NCBI GenBank assembly: GCA_026712295.1
Contig: GCA_026712295.1_4694.1
Length of the DNA: 41,342 bases
Direction: 5' to 3' (one strand)
From: Escherichia coli
GTDB taxonomy: Bacteria; Pseudomonadota; Gammaproteobacteria; Enterobacterales; Enterobacteriaceae
This document shows, one piece after another, positions 2,073-41,342 of this stretch (within the stretch, counting starts at the first letter, position 1; each line of letters starts with the position of its first letter). The translations under genes and the position numbers were made by a program. A model generated the notes under the pieces. That model worked only from the letters and a program-made list of their open reading frames with translations. It did no database searches and was not told the origin of the DNA.

Positions 2073-3332
2073 AGCGCACCACATGCTTCAGGGCGCAGAC
2101 CACCGTGACCCATAGCATACTTAGCGATAATCTGGTCTGCTTGGAAGTTAGCTCGACGAGCACGTTCCAGTGCCATATCTTTCAGCTTAACAGTACCAAC
2201 GGCAGAGCGGTGATTGAACAGACCGACAACGTTGTCCAGAGCAACACGGGTGTCACCAGAGGAAGTCTTAGGGAACGCATGTTTCTGACCAGTCGGATTT
2301 GCACCCTCTTCTGGACGGTCTTCGCCAGCACCACCAGCAGTCAGATGCGGAACCTCAATAACTTCGAAGCCCATAACGTTGCGGATAGAGCCAGTAGACG
2401 GGTCAATCAGAGCCTGATAGTTTGCAGCGTTAGGCATCAGAGCAGCCAGAATAGCAGAGTAGTTGTCTGGAGTGGTGTAGAACACACGGTCAGCAGACGG
2501 AACATAGTTGCCAGTCAGCTTGGCACGAGCCAGAGTTAACTGTGCGATAATAGCCTGACCCAGCTTAACTTGGTCTCCCCGAAGCTCAGACTGCTTGCCA
2601 ACTTCCAGTACATGAGCCTTACCGAGACCAGCGATGTTCTCGTTAGACGCAGACGGCAGGTTACACAGTTTAGCCATTTCAGCCAGAACCGCGCCATCAG
2701 CAGCCATCGCAAGAGATTCACCCAACTGTGCGGTATACTCGGAGCGCACGTCATAGTGGTTCATTGCGTCTTCGATGTCGTAAATCAGAACGTCAGCAGT
2801 CAGCAGACCATCAATGTTAATGGTACGCTCAGTGTGCTTCATGTCTTTACGTTTGTCATCGAGGTTCTCACCCGGTTGCAGGTAAGCAGCTTTGGTACGA
2901 CCCAGCACAGGGAACTGCGCGGACTTACCGGACTGGATAGAGCGAACAAGGTGTTTGTTCATAGTTACGGAGGTACGGGTAAATGCAGTCAGAACTTCAC
3001 CACCGAAGACCTTCAGGAACAGAGCCAGTTTATCACCAGCGCTCATACCTTTACCTTGGTCTTTAAGTGTGCTTCATGTCTTTACGTTTGTCATCGAGGT
3101 TCTCACCCGGTTGCAGGTAAGCAGCTTTGGTACGACCCAGCACAGGGAACTGCGCGGACTTACCGGACTGGATAGAGCGAACAAGGTGTTTGTTCATAGT
3201 TACGGAGGTACGGGTAAATGCAGTCAGAACTTCACCACCGAAGACCTTCAGGAACAGAGCCAGTTTATCACCAGCGCTCATACCTTTACCTTGGTCTTTA
3301 CCCATCTGTTGTCCACCATTCATGCTAGCCAT
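2054..3332 (-). CDS. 10A: Major capsid protein (gp10A), reading frame interrupted by a 235-bp tandem duplication (track ORFs 3063..3332 and 2054..3046)
   Basis: N-terminus MASMNGGQQMGKDQGKG (T7-tag-like) with RBS AGAAGGAGA; downstream ORF matches T7 gp10A throughout (GLLTADVLIYDIEDAMNHYDVRSEY, RANFQADQIIAKYAMGHGGLRPEA); removing one repeat copy restores a 347-aa frame. Confidence 0.9.
2831..3300. repeat. Perfect tandem duplication, 2 x 235 bp (2831..3065 and 3066..3300) inside gene 10
   Basis: Both copies read identically from agtgtgcttcatgtc to ccttggtcttta; unit length is not a multiple of 3. Confidence 0.95.
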
Positions 3333-6136: not shown

Positions 6137-6505
6137 TTAGATATTAAGACCACCGCCAGAACTACGAGCGACACTCAGTGATTTCTTACCGCCAGCACGG
6201 GCTTTCTTCTTACCGGATTCAGTCTGTGCATCATCATCGGAGTCTACATCGTCTTTACTCGGTGGCTCGATAATTTGTGCAGCAGGAGGTGCAGCTTGAA
6301 CGGCAGCAGCGGGTGTCTCAACCACCTGTACATCAGGCTTACCACCACCAGCAAGTGCACCAGCAACGCCACCAACGACCTTACCAGCTTCCTTCCCGAC
6401 CTTCTCGACTGCCTTACCAGTTTCCTTGACTACCTTCTCGATAGGCTTGGTTACTTTCTTGATAGCCTTCTTAACTGATTTGCGAATCTTTTTACCCCAA
6501 CCCAT
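6137..6505 (-). CDS. 7.3: Lysine-rich virion/tail protein gp7.3-like, 122 aa
   Basis: C-terminus ESGKKKARAGGKKSLSVARSSGGGLNI as in T7 gp7.3; AGGAGG RBS. Confidence 0.7.
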   Translation of the reverse strand: MGWGKKIRKSVKKAIKKVTKPIEKVVKETGKAVEKVGKEAGKVVGGVAGALAGGGKPDVQVVETPAAAVQAAPPAAQIIEPPSKDDVDSDDDAQTESGKKKARAGGKKSLSVARSSGGGLNI

Positions 6506-23888: not shown

Positions 23889-24347
23889 TTACTGTACTTG
23901 CCAGCGGCGACCGAACTCATCAATAGTGAAGCAGCCTTTCAGTGCCTCGGTGCGTGGGACTTCTTGGAAGCTACCATGTAGACGTTCAGCTTTGTACCCG
24001 TCGATGCCTTTAGCGTACACTAAGCCAGCCGTGTGAGTCTGTGATTTATAGACCAGCACGCAATCTTGTTCCCACTCATTACATGCCAGACGTGCGACAT
24101 TGAGAACCTGTGCCTTGTCTTTACAACGTACACGGATTGTTTTCTCTTCAGTTGGTGCACTTGAGATGGCTTCGCGGTAACAGCCAGTTAAATCGGTAGA
24201 CTCAACGCTACCATAAAGACCCGGTGCGTTGCGCAGGTTGTTAACCATGTGGCGGTGGCGACTCATGTTGACCTCATCGTCGAGGTTAGAACGGAATGCG
24301 CTTACCAGTACATAGAAAACATTAGCTTGCTCTTTAGTGTGAATCAT
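23889..24347 (-). CDS. 0.3: S-adenosyl-L-methionine hydrolase (T3-type gene 0.3 anti-restriction protein), 152 aa
   Basis: Track ORF trimmed to ATG at 24347 with GAGG RBS; near-identical to T3 SAMase (ANVFYVLVSAFRSNL, RHRHMV, APGLYGSVESTDLTGCYREAISSAPTEEKT, CFTIDEFGRRWQVQ). Confidence 0.9.
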   Translation of the reverse strand: MIHTKEQANVFYVLVSAFRSNLDDEVNMSRHRHMVNNLRNAPGLYGSVESTDLTGCYREAISSAPTEEKTIRVRCKDKAQVLNVARLACNEWEQDCVLVYKSQTHTAGLVYAKGIDGYKAERLHGSFQEVPRTEALKGCFTIDEFGRRWQVQ

Positions 24348-24361
24348 GATGATTGCCTCGA

Positions 24362-24407
24362 TGTTGGTTACAGTGATTATCATAAAGGCTTCTCTTTCGA
24401 GTCACCT
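24362..24407 (-). promoter_or_regulatory. RNase III-type processing hairpin (R0.3-like)
   Basis: TGATTATCATAAAGGCTTCTCTTTCGAGTCACCTTGAGTTAATCGC directly upstream of gene 0.3. Confidence 0.5.
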
Positions 24408-24795: not shown

Positions 24796-24896
24796 CCCTC
24801 AATCTTAAAGAATCTCAAAGTCTCTCTTTAAGTGGTCTTATAGTCTCTTATAGTCTCTTATAGTGGACATAAAGAGAGGATGACCAGTATTAGCTA

Positions 24897-24919
24897 TTCC
24901 TCAATAGTGAGTCGCATTA
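24897..24919 (-). promoter_or_regulatory. T7-type promoter (phiOL-like, left-end replication promoter)
   Basis: Minus strand TAATGCGACTCACTATTGAGGAA, upstream of the sigma70 promoters as phiOL is in T7. Confidence 0.65.
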
Positions 24920-25117
24920 AAGGCTATTGACTATCAGCCACCTTTAAGGCACTATAGGCACTCAGTCGATTCTACTTGTCCCTCTCATCACTCAGGGACT
25001 GCTAAACAGAGTGAGATAGTGATTTCCCTTTGTGACGAAGCCTATTGGTCACTGATAAACATAAGGCACTGACTGAAGGTTAACATAAGGATAGGCAGCC
25101 ATAAGGATAGACATAAG

Positions 25118-25547
25118 GAGGTGACATAAGGTGATAACTCTAGGGTCACTTACAGATAGGGACACAGAGAGGACTACATATAGTGGTCATAAGGTATCAC
25201 TAAGCACCATATCTAGTGGTTACACCTAGAGTTAACCCAATGTCTCACAAAAGGATTGACTTCAGGTAAACCATGAGTTACCATAGAGGAAGGCTCTTTG
25301 GGTGGACTGAAGGAGGCCATAGGGGGGGGGGAGAGGTGACATAAGGTGATAACTCTAGGGTCACTTACAGATAGGGACACAGAGAGGACTACATATAGTG
25401 GTCATAAGGTATCACTAAGCACCATATCTAGTGGTTACACCTAGAGTTAACCCAATGTCTCACAAAAGGATTGACTTCAGGTAAACCATGAGTTACCATA
25501 GAGGAAGGCTCTTTGGGTGGACTGAAGGAGGCCATAGGGGGGGGACT
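25118..25547. repeat. Two adjacent copies of the direct terminal repeat (~214 bp each, 25118..25332 and 25333..25544); junction marks the linear genome ends
   Basis: Copies identical except terminal G-run (10 G vs 8 G); internal motif ACAGATAGGGACACAGAGAG is shared with the T7 terminal repeat; CATAAGG heptamers flank both sides. Confidence 0.8.
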
Positions 25548-25796
25548 CGGTGTTTATGAACTATGAGATACTCACTCAGATTTTTCTGTAGGATTCTTAA
25601 AGGGGTACATCAAGTCTCATAAGGTTAACCACAGAGGCTATATCATAAGGTGAGACTACGTGAGAGACCCTAAGAGACCCTGTAGACCATAGAGGGTACA
25701 TAAGGGTTACTCTTAGAGTTGACTTCTTACAGTGATTATAGGGAAGATGAATATCGACCATAATCACTAAGAGCGCACTAAGCGCCAATGAGTAGT

Positions 25797-25952
25797 CTAA
25801 GAAACACAAGTGAGTAGAGAACAAAGCAGAGTCTCCAGTTCACCGATGTGTTCAGCACTAGATGCGAGGCCAATGGAAGCAGCAAGTACAACGAGAAATT
25901 TGTAGGTCACTCGATGCGTTGCCAGTGTCTTGAGCACGGATAGTAAGCGCAT
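25797..25952 (-). CDS. 19.5: gp19.5-like small membrane protein, 51 aa
   Basis: AAGGAGG RBS then ATG; MRLLSVLKTLATHRVTYKFLVVLAASIGLAS... resembles T7 gp19.5 (HRVTYRFLVVL); not in ORF track. Confidence 0.65.
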   Translation of the reverse strand: MRLLSVLKTLATHRVTYKFLVVLAASIGLASSAEHIGELETLLCSLLTCVS

Positions 25953-26108
25953 AGAGCGTCCTCCTTGTTATACTTGATGGTTACACTGATAGTAGGGATG
26001 TAATTACTATTACCATCATCCCTCACTGTAAGGTCTCTAAGAGTTAGTCACTAAGTATGCACTTTGCATATGCAGTCTTTAAGTGTCTTTAAGTTGTCTT
26101 AGGGTGCC

Positions 26109-26131
26109 CTTCCCAATAGTGAGTCGTATTA
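26109..26131 (-). promoter_or_regulatory. T7-type promoter (phiOR-like), duplicated copy
   Basis: Minus strand TAATACGACTCACTATTGGGAAG. Confidence 0.7.
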
Positions 26132-26397
26132 ATTTCTTCATGTATATCAGTAAGTTACTTAACGGTAACGTAGCGGTACTAAGTGCTTACCTATGCACCT
26201 TTCCCGCATACTTATCTATTACCACTCAATGAAGCAGCTAGAGTCTCCATCATCCTCATAGTAGATGTCCACGCCACCAACATCGTAGCTATGGATAGCA
26301 TCACCACCAATGGTCTGTTTCTCCATGTGGTGTTCAAGGAACTCAAGGGTCATCTCTTCTTCAATCTTTAAGTGTCTTTAAGTTGTCTTAGGGTGCC

Positions 26398-26420
26398 CTT
26401 CCCAATAGTGAGTCGTATTA
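26398..26420 (-). promoter_or_regulatory. T7-type promoter (phiOR-like, right-end promoter downstream of gene 19)
   Basis: Minus strand TAATACGACTCACTATTGGGAAG. Confidence 0.75.
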
Positions 26421-26507
26421 ATTTCTTCATGTATATCAGTAAGTTACTTAACGGTAACGTAGCGGTACTAAGTGCTTACCTATGCACCTTTCCCGCATAC
26501 TTATCTA

Positions 26508-28265
26508 TTACCACTCAATGAAGCAGCTAGAGTCTCCATCATCCTCATAGTAGATGTCCACGCCACCAACATCGTAGCTATGGATAGCATCACCACCAAT
26601 GGTCTGTTTCTCCATGTGGTGTTCAAGGAACTCAAGGGTCATCTCTTCTTCACCTACACGGCTGTCCACAAGCATCCCTTCACGAAGGAACTCGATACCC
26701 AATGCGATAGCATCAATGCGGTCATCGTGTGCCACAGCGCCTCGCTCACGGGTCATACGGGTCATCTGATAGAACGCACTGTAGCGGACATCATGTTTCC
26801 CATCAAGGTCACGAGCAGTCTGGTAGTCCTCACGGATAACCTCATCACGAATGACCAGCTTGTGGGCACCCATCAACGGTTCGATAGTATCGCAGATTCG
26901 CATCTCCTTCATGCCCTTAGCACGGATTTCCTCTAAGGCACACTTATGGTGCTTCAGGAGAATCGGAGAGAAAATCTTACCGAACATACCGTCACCGAAG
27001 TTGGACTCGTGGACTACTGTCTGTACCTTCCACTGCTTGGCCTTCTTAGCGAGCTTCTCTAGGGTAGCATCATCGTAACCACCACGGAACCCACCGACTT
27101 CCATCAAGTAGATATAACCATTAAGTGAGTAGAGGACTGCGTACCCGGTCTCATCCTTACCACGACCACTTGGGTCAATGACCAGAATCTTAGACTGATA
27201 CTCAGCGGTACGAGAAGAGCACGTATGGAACGCATGGATGTCGTCACCCTTCAGACCAACGTTAGGGAGTTCCTCATTGCGGTTCTGACGGTTCGGCAAC
27301 CACTGGTAAGACAATGGGGCACGTTCAGGGTCCACAGCGCACACGATAGCATCACGGAGTCGTAGCGGGTACTTCTCGGCATCACTAAGGTTCGGGTTAA
27401 GCATGAACTGAAGTGTGTAGCCAGCTTTACCATATTCGAGTTCACGTTCACGGAGGTCATCCATATCGAATCGAACAGGGTCAGTAGGTTGACCGCGAAG
27501 TAACTCATAGCCTTCATCATACTCTTGCTTGAGCATAGGAGCCAGTCGGTCGCCATAATAGAGAGCCTCAGCGTCATTACGTGGATACTGTGCTGGCCAG
27601 ATTACTGTGCTGTACCCTTTGTTATCCTCAAGTTCCTTGTAGAGCGTCATCTCAGTTTGAGGTGTGCCAAGGTAGATAACACGAGAGGTAGGCAGCGGCT
27701 TAAGTAATGCAGCGAACTCAGTTACCAACGTCCAGAGCTTCTCACGAGCAGAACTCGTAGAGCTATTACCGGGAACCTCAACGTCATCTGCGATAATGAT
27801 GTCAGCACGGCTACCAGTTAACTGACCAGTGATACCTACAGACTTCACAGAGGGTGAGTGGTCGGGTTTAGCCAAGCCAACATCGAAGCTAATCACGGAG
27901 TCACGCTGTCCCGGTCGAGGTTTCAACTCAGAGAGGAACGGAAGGAGGTCGATGATGTTCTTGATGAAGATGGAGTTAGCATCAGCACGTTCCTTAGAGG
28001 CAGACACGATGAGAACCTTAAGTTGAGGGTCTCGCCATAAGACCCACACGACGAACGCACAGGTGATAAAGGACTTGCCGATACCACGGAACGCCTGAAG
28101 GATAAACTTCTTGTGGTCGCCGTTAGCGAGTGTACGTGCCATATCAATCTGACACTTGGTTGGTTTAGGTAAGTTCAGAGCCTTCCATAAGACGAACAGG
28201 AAGGCCACGAAGTCACCCTTAAGTTGCGCCACGATGAGCGCATTCTTGTTTGCTTGAGTAGACAT
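26508..28265 (-). CDS. 19: Terminase large subunit (DNA maturase B) gp19, 585 aa
   Basis: Walker A-like GIGKS, strong similarity to T7 gp19 (one residue shorter than T7); GGAGG RBS. Confidence 0.95.
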
Positions 28266-29896: not shown

Positions 29897-32105
29897 TTAT
29901 TGGTTTTGAACTAAGATTCGCGTAGGGACTGAACGGGCGTCTTTGTCGTTACGGAAAGTTCTGCCGTTGTTGGAGATTGTGAACTTCAACCAACCACCAT
30001 CAGACGCGATGAAGTAAGCCGCATTGTCACCAATAGGAACGGCGTTCCAGCGACCATTGGTCTGAATCCAGATGGTTCTCCAACGAACATCCTGTGAGAG
30101 ACCTACCGAGACACCACCACCAGCATAGCCTTTCCAGACCTCAGCCCACCCAGCATTCTTATTGACGTATCGACCATCAGCTTGCGCTTGAGTTAACCGT
30201 CCATTGACTAGGTTGTTTACTTCGCTTTTATTGTAGGCATGTTCTCCAAGGCGTTTGTTGACCCAACCGTCGATGTAAGAATCATACTTCGTGATGTATA
30301 AGTTACCATCTGGTGGAATGTACCAGCCTGAGTTGGATGTTAATGTACCATTTGAATCAAACGTATACTCCCTGTTAGCTGCCTGACCAAAGTTAAGCCT
30401 CCACGCCCCAGCGCCGGGGTCTTTGTAAAGATAACCATCGGTGTAGTTATCGCTGGTTTTCATTTGAATATGTCGACGAGCAGAGTTAATCATCAGCAGG
30501 TTCTGTGAGCGAGTCTGTAAGATTCCAGTGAAGTCACCTGATTGTCCAACCGTAAGCCCACCAGCAGCCTCCATATGTCCATTCACTCGCATCTGGCAAA
30601 ATGTGTCGTTAAGGTTAGCCTTCTGGATATACATATAGTACCCATTACCGCTACCACCTAACTCAAATACGTTTGCACGTCCTTGGTCATTCCCCCATAC
30701 GAAGAACCTCATATTTCTATCAGCGAAGTTCTGGTTCACAAGCTGCAACGAGTTCCTTGTTAACACGCTAAACGATTGACCTGCGCCAGCCCTTACTTCC
30801 TTTTCACCAGTAATCTGTCCGGGTGCTACAACATCATTCTTAAAAACAACGTTCTCACCATTAACCGCTTTAATGGTTCCCGCTAAGTTATTCATATTCC
30901 CTAACTTGTCAGCCTCGGTCTTTGCACGGTCAGCTTCACTCTTGGAGCGGTTTGCCTCAGTGTTGGCTCTGTCAGCATGTCCATCAGCGGTAGCAACGTG
31001 TGCAGCGGCTTTGGCAACCTCAGCAGCAGCCTTAGTCACTTCTCCGGCAGCACGATTGGCCTCATCACGGGCACGATTGGCCTCAGAGTTAGAACGGTCA
31101 GCTTGCTTCTTGGCCTCAATTCTTAAAAACAACGTTCTCACCATTAACCGCTTTAATGGTTCCCGCTAAGTTATTCATATTCCCTAACTTGTCAGCCTCG
31201 GTCTTTGCACGGTCAGCTTCACTCTTGGAGCGGTTTGCCTCAGTGTTGGCTCTGTCAGCATGTCCATCAGCGGTAGCAACGTGTGCAGCGGCTTTGGCAA
31301 CCTCAGCAGCAGCCTTAGTCACTTCTCCGGCAGCACGATTGGCCTCATCACGGGCACGATTGGCCTCAGAGTTAGAACGGTCAGCTTGCTTCTTGGCCTC
31401 AGCTACACTTGCGGTCATACTATCAGCATAACCTTTAGCTCGGTTAGCCTCAGAGTTGGAACGGTCAGCTTGCTTCTTGGACTCAACCGCCTGTGCCGTA
31501 GAGACACCTGCCTGTTGGGTTGAGCGGTCAGCTTCACGTTTTGCACGGTCAGCTTCATCTCGCGATCGGTTAGCCTCAGTGTTAGAGCGGTTAGCGTGTT
31601 CATTGGCCTTGTTAACAGCGTTCCAAGCAGACGACTCGCGCTCTTTTACTTGCTTCAGAGGGACAGCATCGTAGTCACTGGTAGCGAACGCTAGGTTCAC
31701 AATCTTACGACCACGGGCATCCAAGTGACCATCATTGTTGACACCAATGGTATCCGCAGTTAGGTCTCGTGCCTCTTCAGCTACGTGCAGCGTCTGAATC
31801 TGTGAGATGTTAAGGTCATACGCACGAAGGATTGAGCCATCAGCAAAGTCAACCAGACGGTCGGTTGCAGAAGTGAATCGACGAATCTCAATCATCTGAT
31901 AACCATCGGCAGCAGTCCACGCACGGGAGGTTGTGATTTGGGTCTTAGTGGTAAAGCGATAGTCCTGATTGAGAACCAACTCTTTACGGTCTTTCCCGAT
32001 GAGTGTCACTTGGACGAACTTACGTGCTAAATACTCAAAGGTAATCGTGAAGTTCACGGCACCGTTCAGCGGGTAAGTACGTACAGTGGAAATTTTGTTA
32101 GCCAT
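29897..32105 (-). CDS. 17: Tail fibre protein gp17, reading frame interrupted by a 283-bp tandem duplication (track ORFs 31116..32105 and 29897..31144)
   Basis: N-terminus MANKISTVRTYPLNGAVNFTITFEYLARKFV and DRLVDFADGSILRAYDLNISQIQTLHVAEEARDLTADTIGVNNDGHLDARGRKIVNL match T7 gp17; C-terminus YFIASDGGWL; removing one repeat copy gives a 641-aa frame. Confidence 0.88.
30836..31401. repeat. Perfect tandem duplication, 2 x 283 bp (30836..31118 and 31119..31401) inside gene 17
   Basis: Both copies identical from attcttaaaaacaacg to gcttgcttcttggcctca; unit length not a multiple of 3. Confidence 0.95.
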
Positions 32106-40038: not shown

Positions 40039-41342
40039 TTAGATACCAGAAGAACGACGCAGGTAGTTACCCTCCCAGCCACAACCAATAACGTTCAGTG
40101 GCGTAGTATGGTCAGAGATAATACGTACTTCATTCAACTGTGCGTTGCCAGCGACCGGGAAGCGGAACTGACCAGTACCAACATTAAGCCCACCAGAGCG
40201 TAACGCATTGGAACCCAAGCGAGCACCCGCCATGTCATAGCTGAACAGTCGAGAGGTGTTCTCCACTTCTACAGTGAATGCACCAGAGTCCTCATAGTTC
40301 ACCCACGCTCGGCGTAACTGCAAGCGCCCAATACCCTCGGTAGCTGTCGAGCCATCATCAGCAGTCTTCTTGATGAGGAACTTAGAGAACACATAACGGA
40401 AGTTGATAGCCAAGCCAACGTAGATTGTCTCATCCTCACGGTTCCCACTCATTGACAACACAGGGACACCATTAGGCCAACCACCACGCGGAGGGTCGAA
40501 CCACGAGACCTGACCATCAGAGGCCACAATGTAGAACCTACCAGTCCAATATTGCATCCCATAGATGTCTACAGGCTTCACAGTGGTAGTGTAAGTGTCA
40601 TCGTTGTAGGCACCTTTAGGAATCACATACTTTATCTTGTTGTCGATGTACAGCCGATATGGTTCATCGTTGAAGTCAATGGAGTTCTTCGTAAAGTGTG
40701 CTCGGCACATCCAAGTGTGGGACTGGTTGCGCAACACAAGGTACATCGTTGAGCCGATAGAGTCACAAGCCAGAACCGTTACGTTACTTCCAAGTTCCCA
40801 ATGTGACCACGACTGTTGAGCAATCTCTTCGTTGAGGTACAGGAATTTGTACAGGAAGATTTTACTCGGAGCGTTCGCAGAGAGCACGGAGATAAAGTTC
40901 TCAGTACCGGAGCCACGAATGGAGAACACACCGTTCGGAATGTAACTTGGAACGTGAGCACTCATATCCTCAGCAGACTTCACGGAGCTAACATCCTGTA
41001 CCGCATAGTAACGGTTAAGTGACGTATAGGAAGCACGAGGTGACGCAAAGTACACACCACGCCCAACGCCAAAAGGTCTCGCTCGGTCTGACACATCGAA
41101 CTCTGTCGTGAGGTTCAACTCTACTGACTTCGGTGAGAGGATACCTTGAGCAGACAACACGAACTGTGCTTGGTCTGACCATAGGAGCAACTCTTCGGAG
41201 AACGGTACAGCGTACTTCAGGATAGAGATTCGGTTATGGGACACAGCCACGTCAATTGGGTCATCGTCGGACAGGTTAGCCACGGACGCAGGGAACAGTG
41301 AGAAATACTTTGATGTACGGGACATTACAATGTTCTCACCAG
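40039..41342 (-). CDS. 12: Tail tubular protein B (gp12), C-terminal part; N-terminal part is at 1..1234 across the circular wrap
   Basis: C-terminus GCGWEGNYLRRSSGI identical to T7 gp12; the track start at 41325 is an artefact of a t/g mismatch with the window-start copy (CTG Leu at 140-142). Confidence 0.9.
   Translation of the reverse strand, partial: GENIVMSRTSKYFSLFPASVANLSDDDPIDVAVSHNRISILKYAVPFSEELLLWSDQAQFVLSAQGILSPKSVELNLTTEFDVSDRARPFGVGRGVYFASPRASYTSLNRYYAVQDVSSVKSAEDMSAHVPSYIPNGVFSIRGSGTENFISVLSANAPSKIFLYKFLYLNEEIAQQSWSHWELGSNVTVLACDSIGSTMYLVLRNQSHTWMCRAHFTKNSIDFNDEPYRLYIDNKIKYVIPKGAYNDDTYTTTVKPVDIYGMQYWTGRFYIVASDGQVSWFDPPRGGWPNGVPVLSMSGNREDETIYVGLAINFRYVFSKFLIKKTADDGSTATEGIGRLQLRRAWVNYEDSGAFTVEVENTSRLFSYDMAGARLGSNALRSGGLNVGTGQFRFPVAGNAQLNEVRIISDHTTPLNVIGCGWEGNYLRRSSGI
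41184..41342. repeat. Window-edge overlap: 41184..41342 repeats 1..159 (circular wrap), one mismatch
   Basis: 159-nt identity except g at 142 versus t at 41325. Confidence 0.95.

Follow-up and report, generated by a model that had tools for sequence, protein, structure and literature searches.

In T7 and T3, each concatemer junction carries the terminal repeat (TR) once, and packaging produces the second copy (PMC5557969; PMC10438801). In sequencing data, the presence of such a repeat at both ends of virion DNA is judged from pile-ups of read starts and ends and from 2x coverage, the criteria of PhageTerm (PMC5557969). The repeat is 160 bp long in T7 (PMC5557969) and is annotated at positions 1-231 (231 bp) in T3. 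Annotated TRs of relatives measure 194 bp in Kvp1 (FJ194439) and 194 bp in BA14 (EU734171), and a 192-bp repeat_region stands at the right end of PcCB251. The boundaries are common to Kvp1, BA14, T7 and T3, with a start at TCTCATAG or TCTCACAG and an end at ...GTGTCCCT, which is exactly where the T7 and T3 repeats both stop. In the BA14 annotation, the equivalent CTATCTGT is called 'concatemeric junction'. Repeats in this part of the genome can also be generated by assembly, as in T7-like phages spurious repeats near or within the DTRs arose in this way and were disproved by Sanger sequencing (PMC10438801).

The window analysed here, i.e., the whole stretch of 41,342 nt, was placed by megablast in Berlinvirus (Autographiviridae, Studiervirinae; T7/T3-like), with Enterobacter phage PZJ0206 (MT625440, ~97% identity) as the nearest record. 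It represents a whole phage genome in permuted form, as both window ends map to overlapping PZJ0206 coordinates, and all of its phage genes lie on the minus strand. The right genome end is marked by gene 19.5 (25797-25952, minus strand; 51 aa), whose translation matches Kvp1 gp19.5, and a phiOR-like promoter is found at 26114-26132. Landmarks of the left end are a phiOL-like phage RNA polymerase promoter, TTAATGCGACTCACTATTG (24902-24920, minus strand), in the position of phiOL in BA14, and gene 0.3 (23889-24383, minus strand).

Between these landmarks, where the TR of a T7-type phage is located relative to gene 19.5 and to phiOL, the early promoters and gene 0.3, the minus strand of the window holds a predicted direct terminal repeat, or its concatemer-junction copy, at 25373..25568. 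This tract runs from TCTCATAGTTCAT to CTCTCTGTGTCCCT and comprises 196 bp with a C8 run (197 bp if C9). It thus has the boundaries of a T7-type TR, from TCTCATAG... to ...GTGTCCCT, and the annotated repeats of Kvp1, BA14 and PcCB251 align to it on the minus strand with a start at TCTCATAGTTCAT and an end at CTCTCTGTGTCCC(T), corresponding to 25568->25373/4. With the 196-nt tract as query, it was flush with the first or last base in the records of at least eight relatives, namely Kvp1, BA14, LPST144, LPST153, vB_CECAV_058, JSS2, pO103 and PP74. The likeness to Kvp1 and BA14 extends to the start TCTCATAGTTCAT, with no difference from Kvp1 over the first 23-24 nt, to a C-run followed by TATGGCC about 24 nt inside the repeat, to the end CTCTCTGTGTCCCT followed by ATCTGT, and to the location between gene 19.5 and phiOL; over the 196-nt tract, identity to these phages is 82-90%. 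Their C-run is 5-6 nt long as compared to 8-10 nt in the window. With T7 and T3 the window shares the left end TCTCA(C/T)AG and a TR that ends within the conserved CTCT(C/A)TGTGTCCCT|ATCTGT, whereas TR length and internal sequence are different, and for the packaging mechanism we rely on homology to these two phages.

The underlying TR is therefore an ordinary direct terminal repeat of the known T7 type, ~196-197 bp in length. From homology to relatives, the ends of which others had determined, we infer that the physical DNA would extend from a left end at 25568 to a right end at 25373. By homology with T7 and T3, the TR would occur once per concatemer junction and its second copy would be synthesised at packaging; by analogy with the same phages, virion DNA would start with TCTCATAG... 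and end with ...GTGTCCCT. One TR copy per junction or circular assembly is also what is found in three other assemblies of this phage (contigs L009, L011 and L012, see below) and in the permuted S523 record.

Unlike the records of Kvp1 and BA14, the window contains a second, partial tandem copy of this region, which covers TR positions 24-196 and continues for 40 nt into unique DNA. Positions 25118-25329 and 25333-25544 are 100% identical over 212 nt, far above chance expectation, with the trinucleotide GGA (25330-25332) between the copies. A unit of ~214 bp at 25118..25332 that recurs at 25333..25544 had been reported in the original prediction, and the 212 identical nucleotides bear this out. 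The first, redundant copy (25118..25332; 212 nt plus GGA) begins in T7 orientation with T-C10-TATGG at TR position 24 and extends 40 nt past the TR. The second copy (25333..25545) directly adjoins the 23 nt at the TR start, which are present in single copy. Read in T7 orientation, the order is gene 19.5...GAGTA-TCTCATAGTTCATAAACACCGAGT-C8, followed by a unit that extends from TATGG through ...GTGTCCCT-ATCTGT to ...GTCACCTC; after this first unit come T-C10, the same 204 nt once more, and CTTATGTC...early region. The prediction was likewise correct that the unit lies between gene 19.5 and the early region with its phiOL-like promoter and gene 0.3, and that it contains the core of the T7 terminal repeat. 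This 20-nt core, ACAGATAGGGACACAGAGAG (reverse complement CTCTCTGTGTCCCTATCTGT), occurs within the window once per copy, at 25152-25171 and 25367-25386 only (0 expected by chance), and also at T7 positions 147-166. It is itself split by the TR boundary into 14 nt of repeat and 6 nt (ATCTGT) of unique left-end DNA, so that the conserved junction motif CTCTCTGTGTCCCT|ATCTGT at 25367..25386 (minus strand) spans the right TR boundary and is duplicated at 25152-25171.

The further claim that the duplicated unit is the terminal repeat does not hold, as its edges lie 23 nt inside and 40 nt outside the TR, and it lacks the TCTCATAG... to ...GTGTCCCT boundaries. The TR start of 24 nt (TCTCATAGTTCATAAACACCGAGT; 25545..25568, minus strand) lies outside the duplicated unit and matches the window once with up to three mismatches allowed. 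If two whole TRs were joined, this start, which is identical to Kvp1, would have to be present twice together with the rest of the repeat. Each unit furthermore holds 40 nt that in Kvp1, BA14, T7 and T3 belong to the unique DNA of the left end, and measures 213-215 bp as compared to 194-196 bp for the TRs of relatives. The junction of the copies at 25332/25333 reads ...GTCACCTC|T-C10-TATGG (CACCTC|T-C10-TATGG), whereas joined TRs need CCCT|TCTCATAG (...GTGTCCCT|TCTCATAGTTCAT...). Because of these edges and the mismatch of the junction with the TR, 25332/25333 is not a physical end; it is offset from the ends placed by homology by 41 and 236 nt. A longer TR of 236 nt (25568->25333) was considered and rejected, as it would still need TCTCATAG after CACCTC, where it is absent.

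The tandem duplication in the TR region is accompanied by four others in the window. A 235-bp sequence is perfectly duplicated in gene 10 (major capsid; 2831..3300) and causes a frameshift, as does a perfect 283-bp duplication in gene 17 (tail fibre; 30836..31401). Two copies of 288 bp plus one additional nucleotide (A) span the 3' end of gene 19 and the phiOR-like promoter (26076..26652), and the two window ends overlap by 159 nt with one mismatch (1-159 = 41184..41342). The internal duplications at 2831-3300, 26076-26652 and 30836-31401 were each detected by TRF with 2.0 copies, and in the alignment to PZJ0206, which is collinear elsewhere, each shows up as a simple jump back. Deletion of one copy restores gp10A (347 aa) and gp17 (641 aa), which then align with their PZJ0206 counterparts over the full length. 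A phage in which gene 10 and gene 17 are both broken would not be viable, and therefore the duplications cannot all be real. The 89-aa frameshift ORF that is created by the 235-bp duplication has no entry on record. If one copy is kept at each of the five duplication sites, the phage genome amounts to ~40.16 kb as compared to 41.34 kb for the window.

The same phage is present in at least five NCBI WGS assemblies (JAJCTP/Q/S/T/U; GCA_026712305/325/335/415/435; contigs L009-L015). These sister contigs were found by exact-protein look-up with gp19 and gp8, and their DNA is 99.8-100% identical to the window; a literature search for the sister WGS accessions returned nothing. Taken together, the sister contigs have all five duplication sites in single copy. 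The 215-bp unit is single in L009, L011 and L012, from which the redundant copy 1 is absent; the gene 10 duplication is single in L014 and L015, the gene 19 duplication in L009-L013, the gene 17 duplication in L009 and L013, and the window-end overlap in L014. When copy 1 is removed, the window matches L009 at 586 of 587 positions, the sole difference being C8 versus C9. At the same spot L010 has a different duplication, which is 338 nt long, starts at the C-run and has a single N at the join. Seven such single-N joins occur in L010 and L012, and the sequences on either side of them share uncollapsed overlaps of 205-373 nt (0-3 mismatches). L011 and L012 each have an N join 6-7 nt upstream of TCTCATAG. 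At position 5147 of L012 (= window 25576-25627), 52 nt just upstream of the TR start are missing at an N join. Assembly of the phage differed from one record to the next; L010 has a split RNA polymerase gene and L013 a split tail fibre gene. The exact junction sequences of the window had no match in viral, metagenome and genome contig collections.

The C-run is a recurrent breakpoint beyond these assemblies. The records of PZJ0206 and PhiV-1 (MT542512) both start at it, 24-25 nt inside the TR. The ends of the PZJ0206 record overlap by ~393 nt, and because this redundancy runs through the TR and past it into left unique DNA, the annotated PZJ0206 ends are assembly ends and not physical ends. 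Circularising PZJ0206 would give a tandem duplication of the same type as in the window, with the difference that its overlap is longer and situated at the record ends, and that it has no gene-breaking internal duplications. Altogether, assembly breakpoints cluster within ~30 nt of the predicted left end, and the extent of the duplication differs between assemblies.

We conclude that the 215-bp tandem duplication is very probably an uncollapsed contig overlap from assembly and not a feature of the phage, because its edges do not fit the TR boundaries, four other overlaps co-occur with it, and it is absent from sister assemblies. Three patterns characteristic of such an artefact are present: two near-identical tandem copies at several unrelated sites including essential genes, lack of the duplication in independent assemblies of the same phage, and explicit single-N joins with flanking overlaps in L010 and L012, one of them at the C-run. 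In T7 orientation, one contig may have begun at the C-run, 23 nt into the TR and very close to the physical left end, and a second contig may have run from gene 19 through the whole collapsed TR into 40 nt of left unique DNA. If the two were butted without merging their overlap, the shared 212 nt would be doubled and the homopolymer would be called separately in each copy, as C10 and C8. The joined-ends reading of the original prediction keeps three of its elements, as the region does contain a T7-type TR, one copy is redundant, and 25332/25333 does look like butted sequence ends; the physical genome ends are placed by homology at 25568 and 25373 instead. The duplication also loses its value as a mark of genome ends, given four similar duplications at sites that are not ends and sister assemblies without it. 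Against an overlap artefact count the inconsistent fillers at the joins (0, 0, 1, and 3 nt) and the lack of Ns at the joins of the window, unlike in the sister assemblies.

A comparable case was described for przondoviruses, in which spurious repeats in the DTR region lacked independent support and short-read assemblies had frameshifts in structural genes, there the tail-fibre genes (PMC10438801). The przondovirus repeats measured ~79 bp and were confirmed as artefact by Sanger sequencing, whereas the repeats in the window are 159-289 bp long, are distributed genome-wide, and are regarded as artefact from comparison with sister assemblies.

As originally noted, the G-run (C-run in T7 orientation) differs between the copies, with G10 at the duplication junction (25322..25331) and G8 in copy 2 (25537-25544), and both runs are followed by a shared A. 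Of the two explanations offered there, a sequencing error or real heterogeneity of the genome ends, the latter is contradicted by assemblies of the same phage, which give 8, 9 or 10, mostly 9: the run is C9 in L009, L010, and L011 and C8 in L012, and across copies and assemblies its length is 8, 8, 9, 9, 9, 9 or 10. The variation looks like calling noise at contig ends and not like a difference between genome ends.

The same duplications could alternatively have been made downstream of assembly, by script or hand concatenation of fragments or of amplicon consensus sequences, or by stripping of Ns. The five joins delimit irregular segments (~1.0, 3.1, 4.8, 10.1, and 22.3 kb), and the window is free of Ns, whereas the corresponding kind of join in sister scaffolds is still marked by a single N. 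However, the sequence pattern is the same as that of an assembler artefact and the biological conclusion would be unchanged; we regard this origin as possible, if rather unlikely. A genuine 215-bp tandem duplication in the phage stock, produced by slippage or illegitimate recombination, would be tolerated in this non-coding region, and the 3-nt filler and differing homopolymer indicate that the copies are no trivial copy-paste. It is nevertheless very improbable, as three sister assemblies lack the duplication and a fourth has one of another length with an N at the join, it shares its size and form with duplications that would inactivate the genes for capsid and tail fibre, and its start coincides with the C-run at which unrelated assemblies break. 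Hardly to be expected, too, is the corollary of such a real duplication, namely a phage stock with two right-end motifs CTCTCTGTGTCCCT|ATCTGT and one left-end start; if true, there would possibly be two alternative right-end cleavage sites and virion DNA of mixed lengths. A weaker variant of this corollary would be true length variation, within the population, of the C8-C10 run that lies 24 nt from the left end. That the window is a circularised linear record in which two full TRs of ~213-215 bp abut, with the physical ends at 25332/25333, is scarcely credible in view of the edges, length and junction of the unit and of four equivalent duplications at positions other than ends, even though the number of copies is exactly two, their place between gene 19.5 and the early region is the expected one, and each contains the T7 motif.

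The biological weight of the locus is small, as it represents a standard T7-type TR, and the Berlinvirus concerned shares ~97% identity with a deposited phage. Its relevance rather concerns data quality. Counting the 159-nt end overlap, the putatively spurious duplication would sum up to ~1.2 kb over five sites, with the capsid and tail-fibre genes broken. With the genome ends set at 25332/25333, the termini would be off by 41 and 236 nt, and the repeat would be given as 215 bp as compared to ~196 bp. If a repeat starts at the C-homopolymer shortly after the left end, this should be read as a warning sign and not as a true terminus, because breakpoints cluster there in several independent records.

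Some additional features of the window deserve mention. Compared to L014, the window has an indel of ~40-50 nt at 6312-6364, in the gene 7.3 / 6.7 area, next to a short region of in-frame tandem repeats. Nearby, TRF identified arrays with 33- and 21-nt periods (6379-6469), and L015 has an N join there. This indel could be a real difference in copy number or a further assembly problem. An inverted repeat inside the 215-bp unit (24 nt, 75% complementary) was considered as a processing hairpin and rejected as weak. Within the TR, a sigma-70-like match (TTGACT-17-TACCAT, 9/12) at 25471-25499 on the plus strand, and again at 25256-25284, is directed leftward in T7 orientation. It recalls the leftward E. 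coli promoter A0 that is annotated inside the T3 TR. As a promoter it was dismissed, with such matches at chance level (5 sites versus 4.0 +/- 2.1 expected). The left-arm flank of the TR contains iterated TCTTATAGTC (x2.9) and CATAAGG(A/T) repeats at 24836-24864 and 25060-25120, the counterpart of the CCTAAAG/ACCTAAAG repeats beside the T7 TR.
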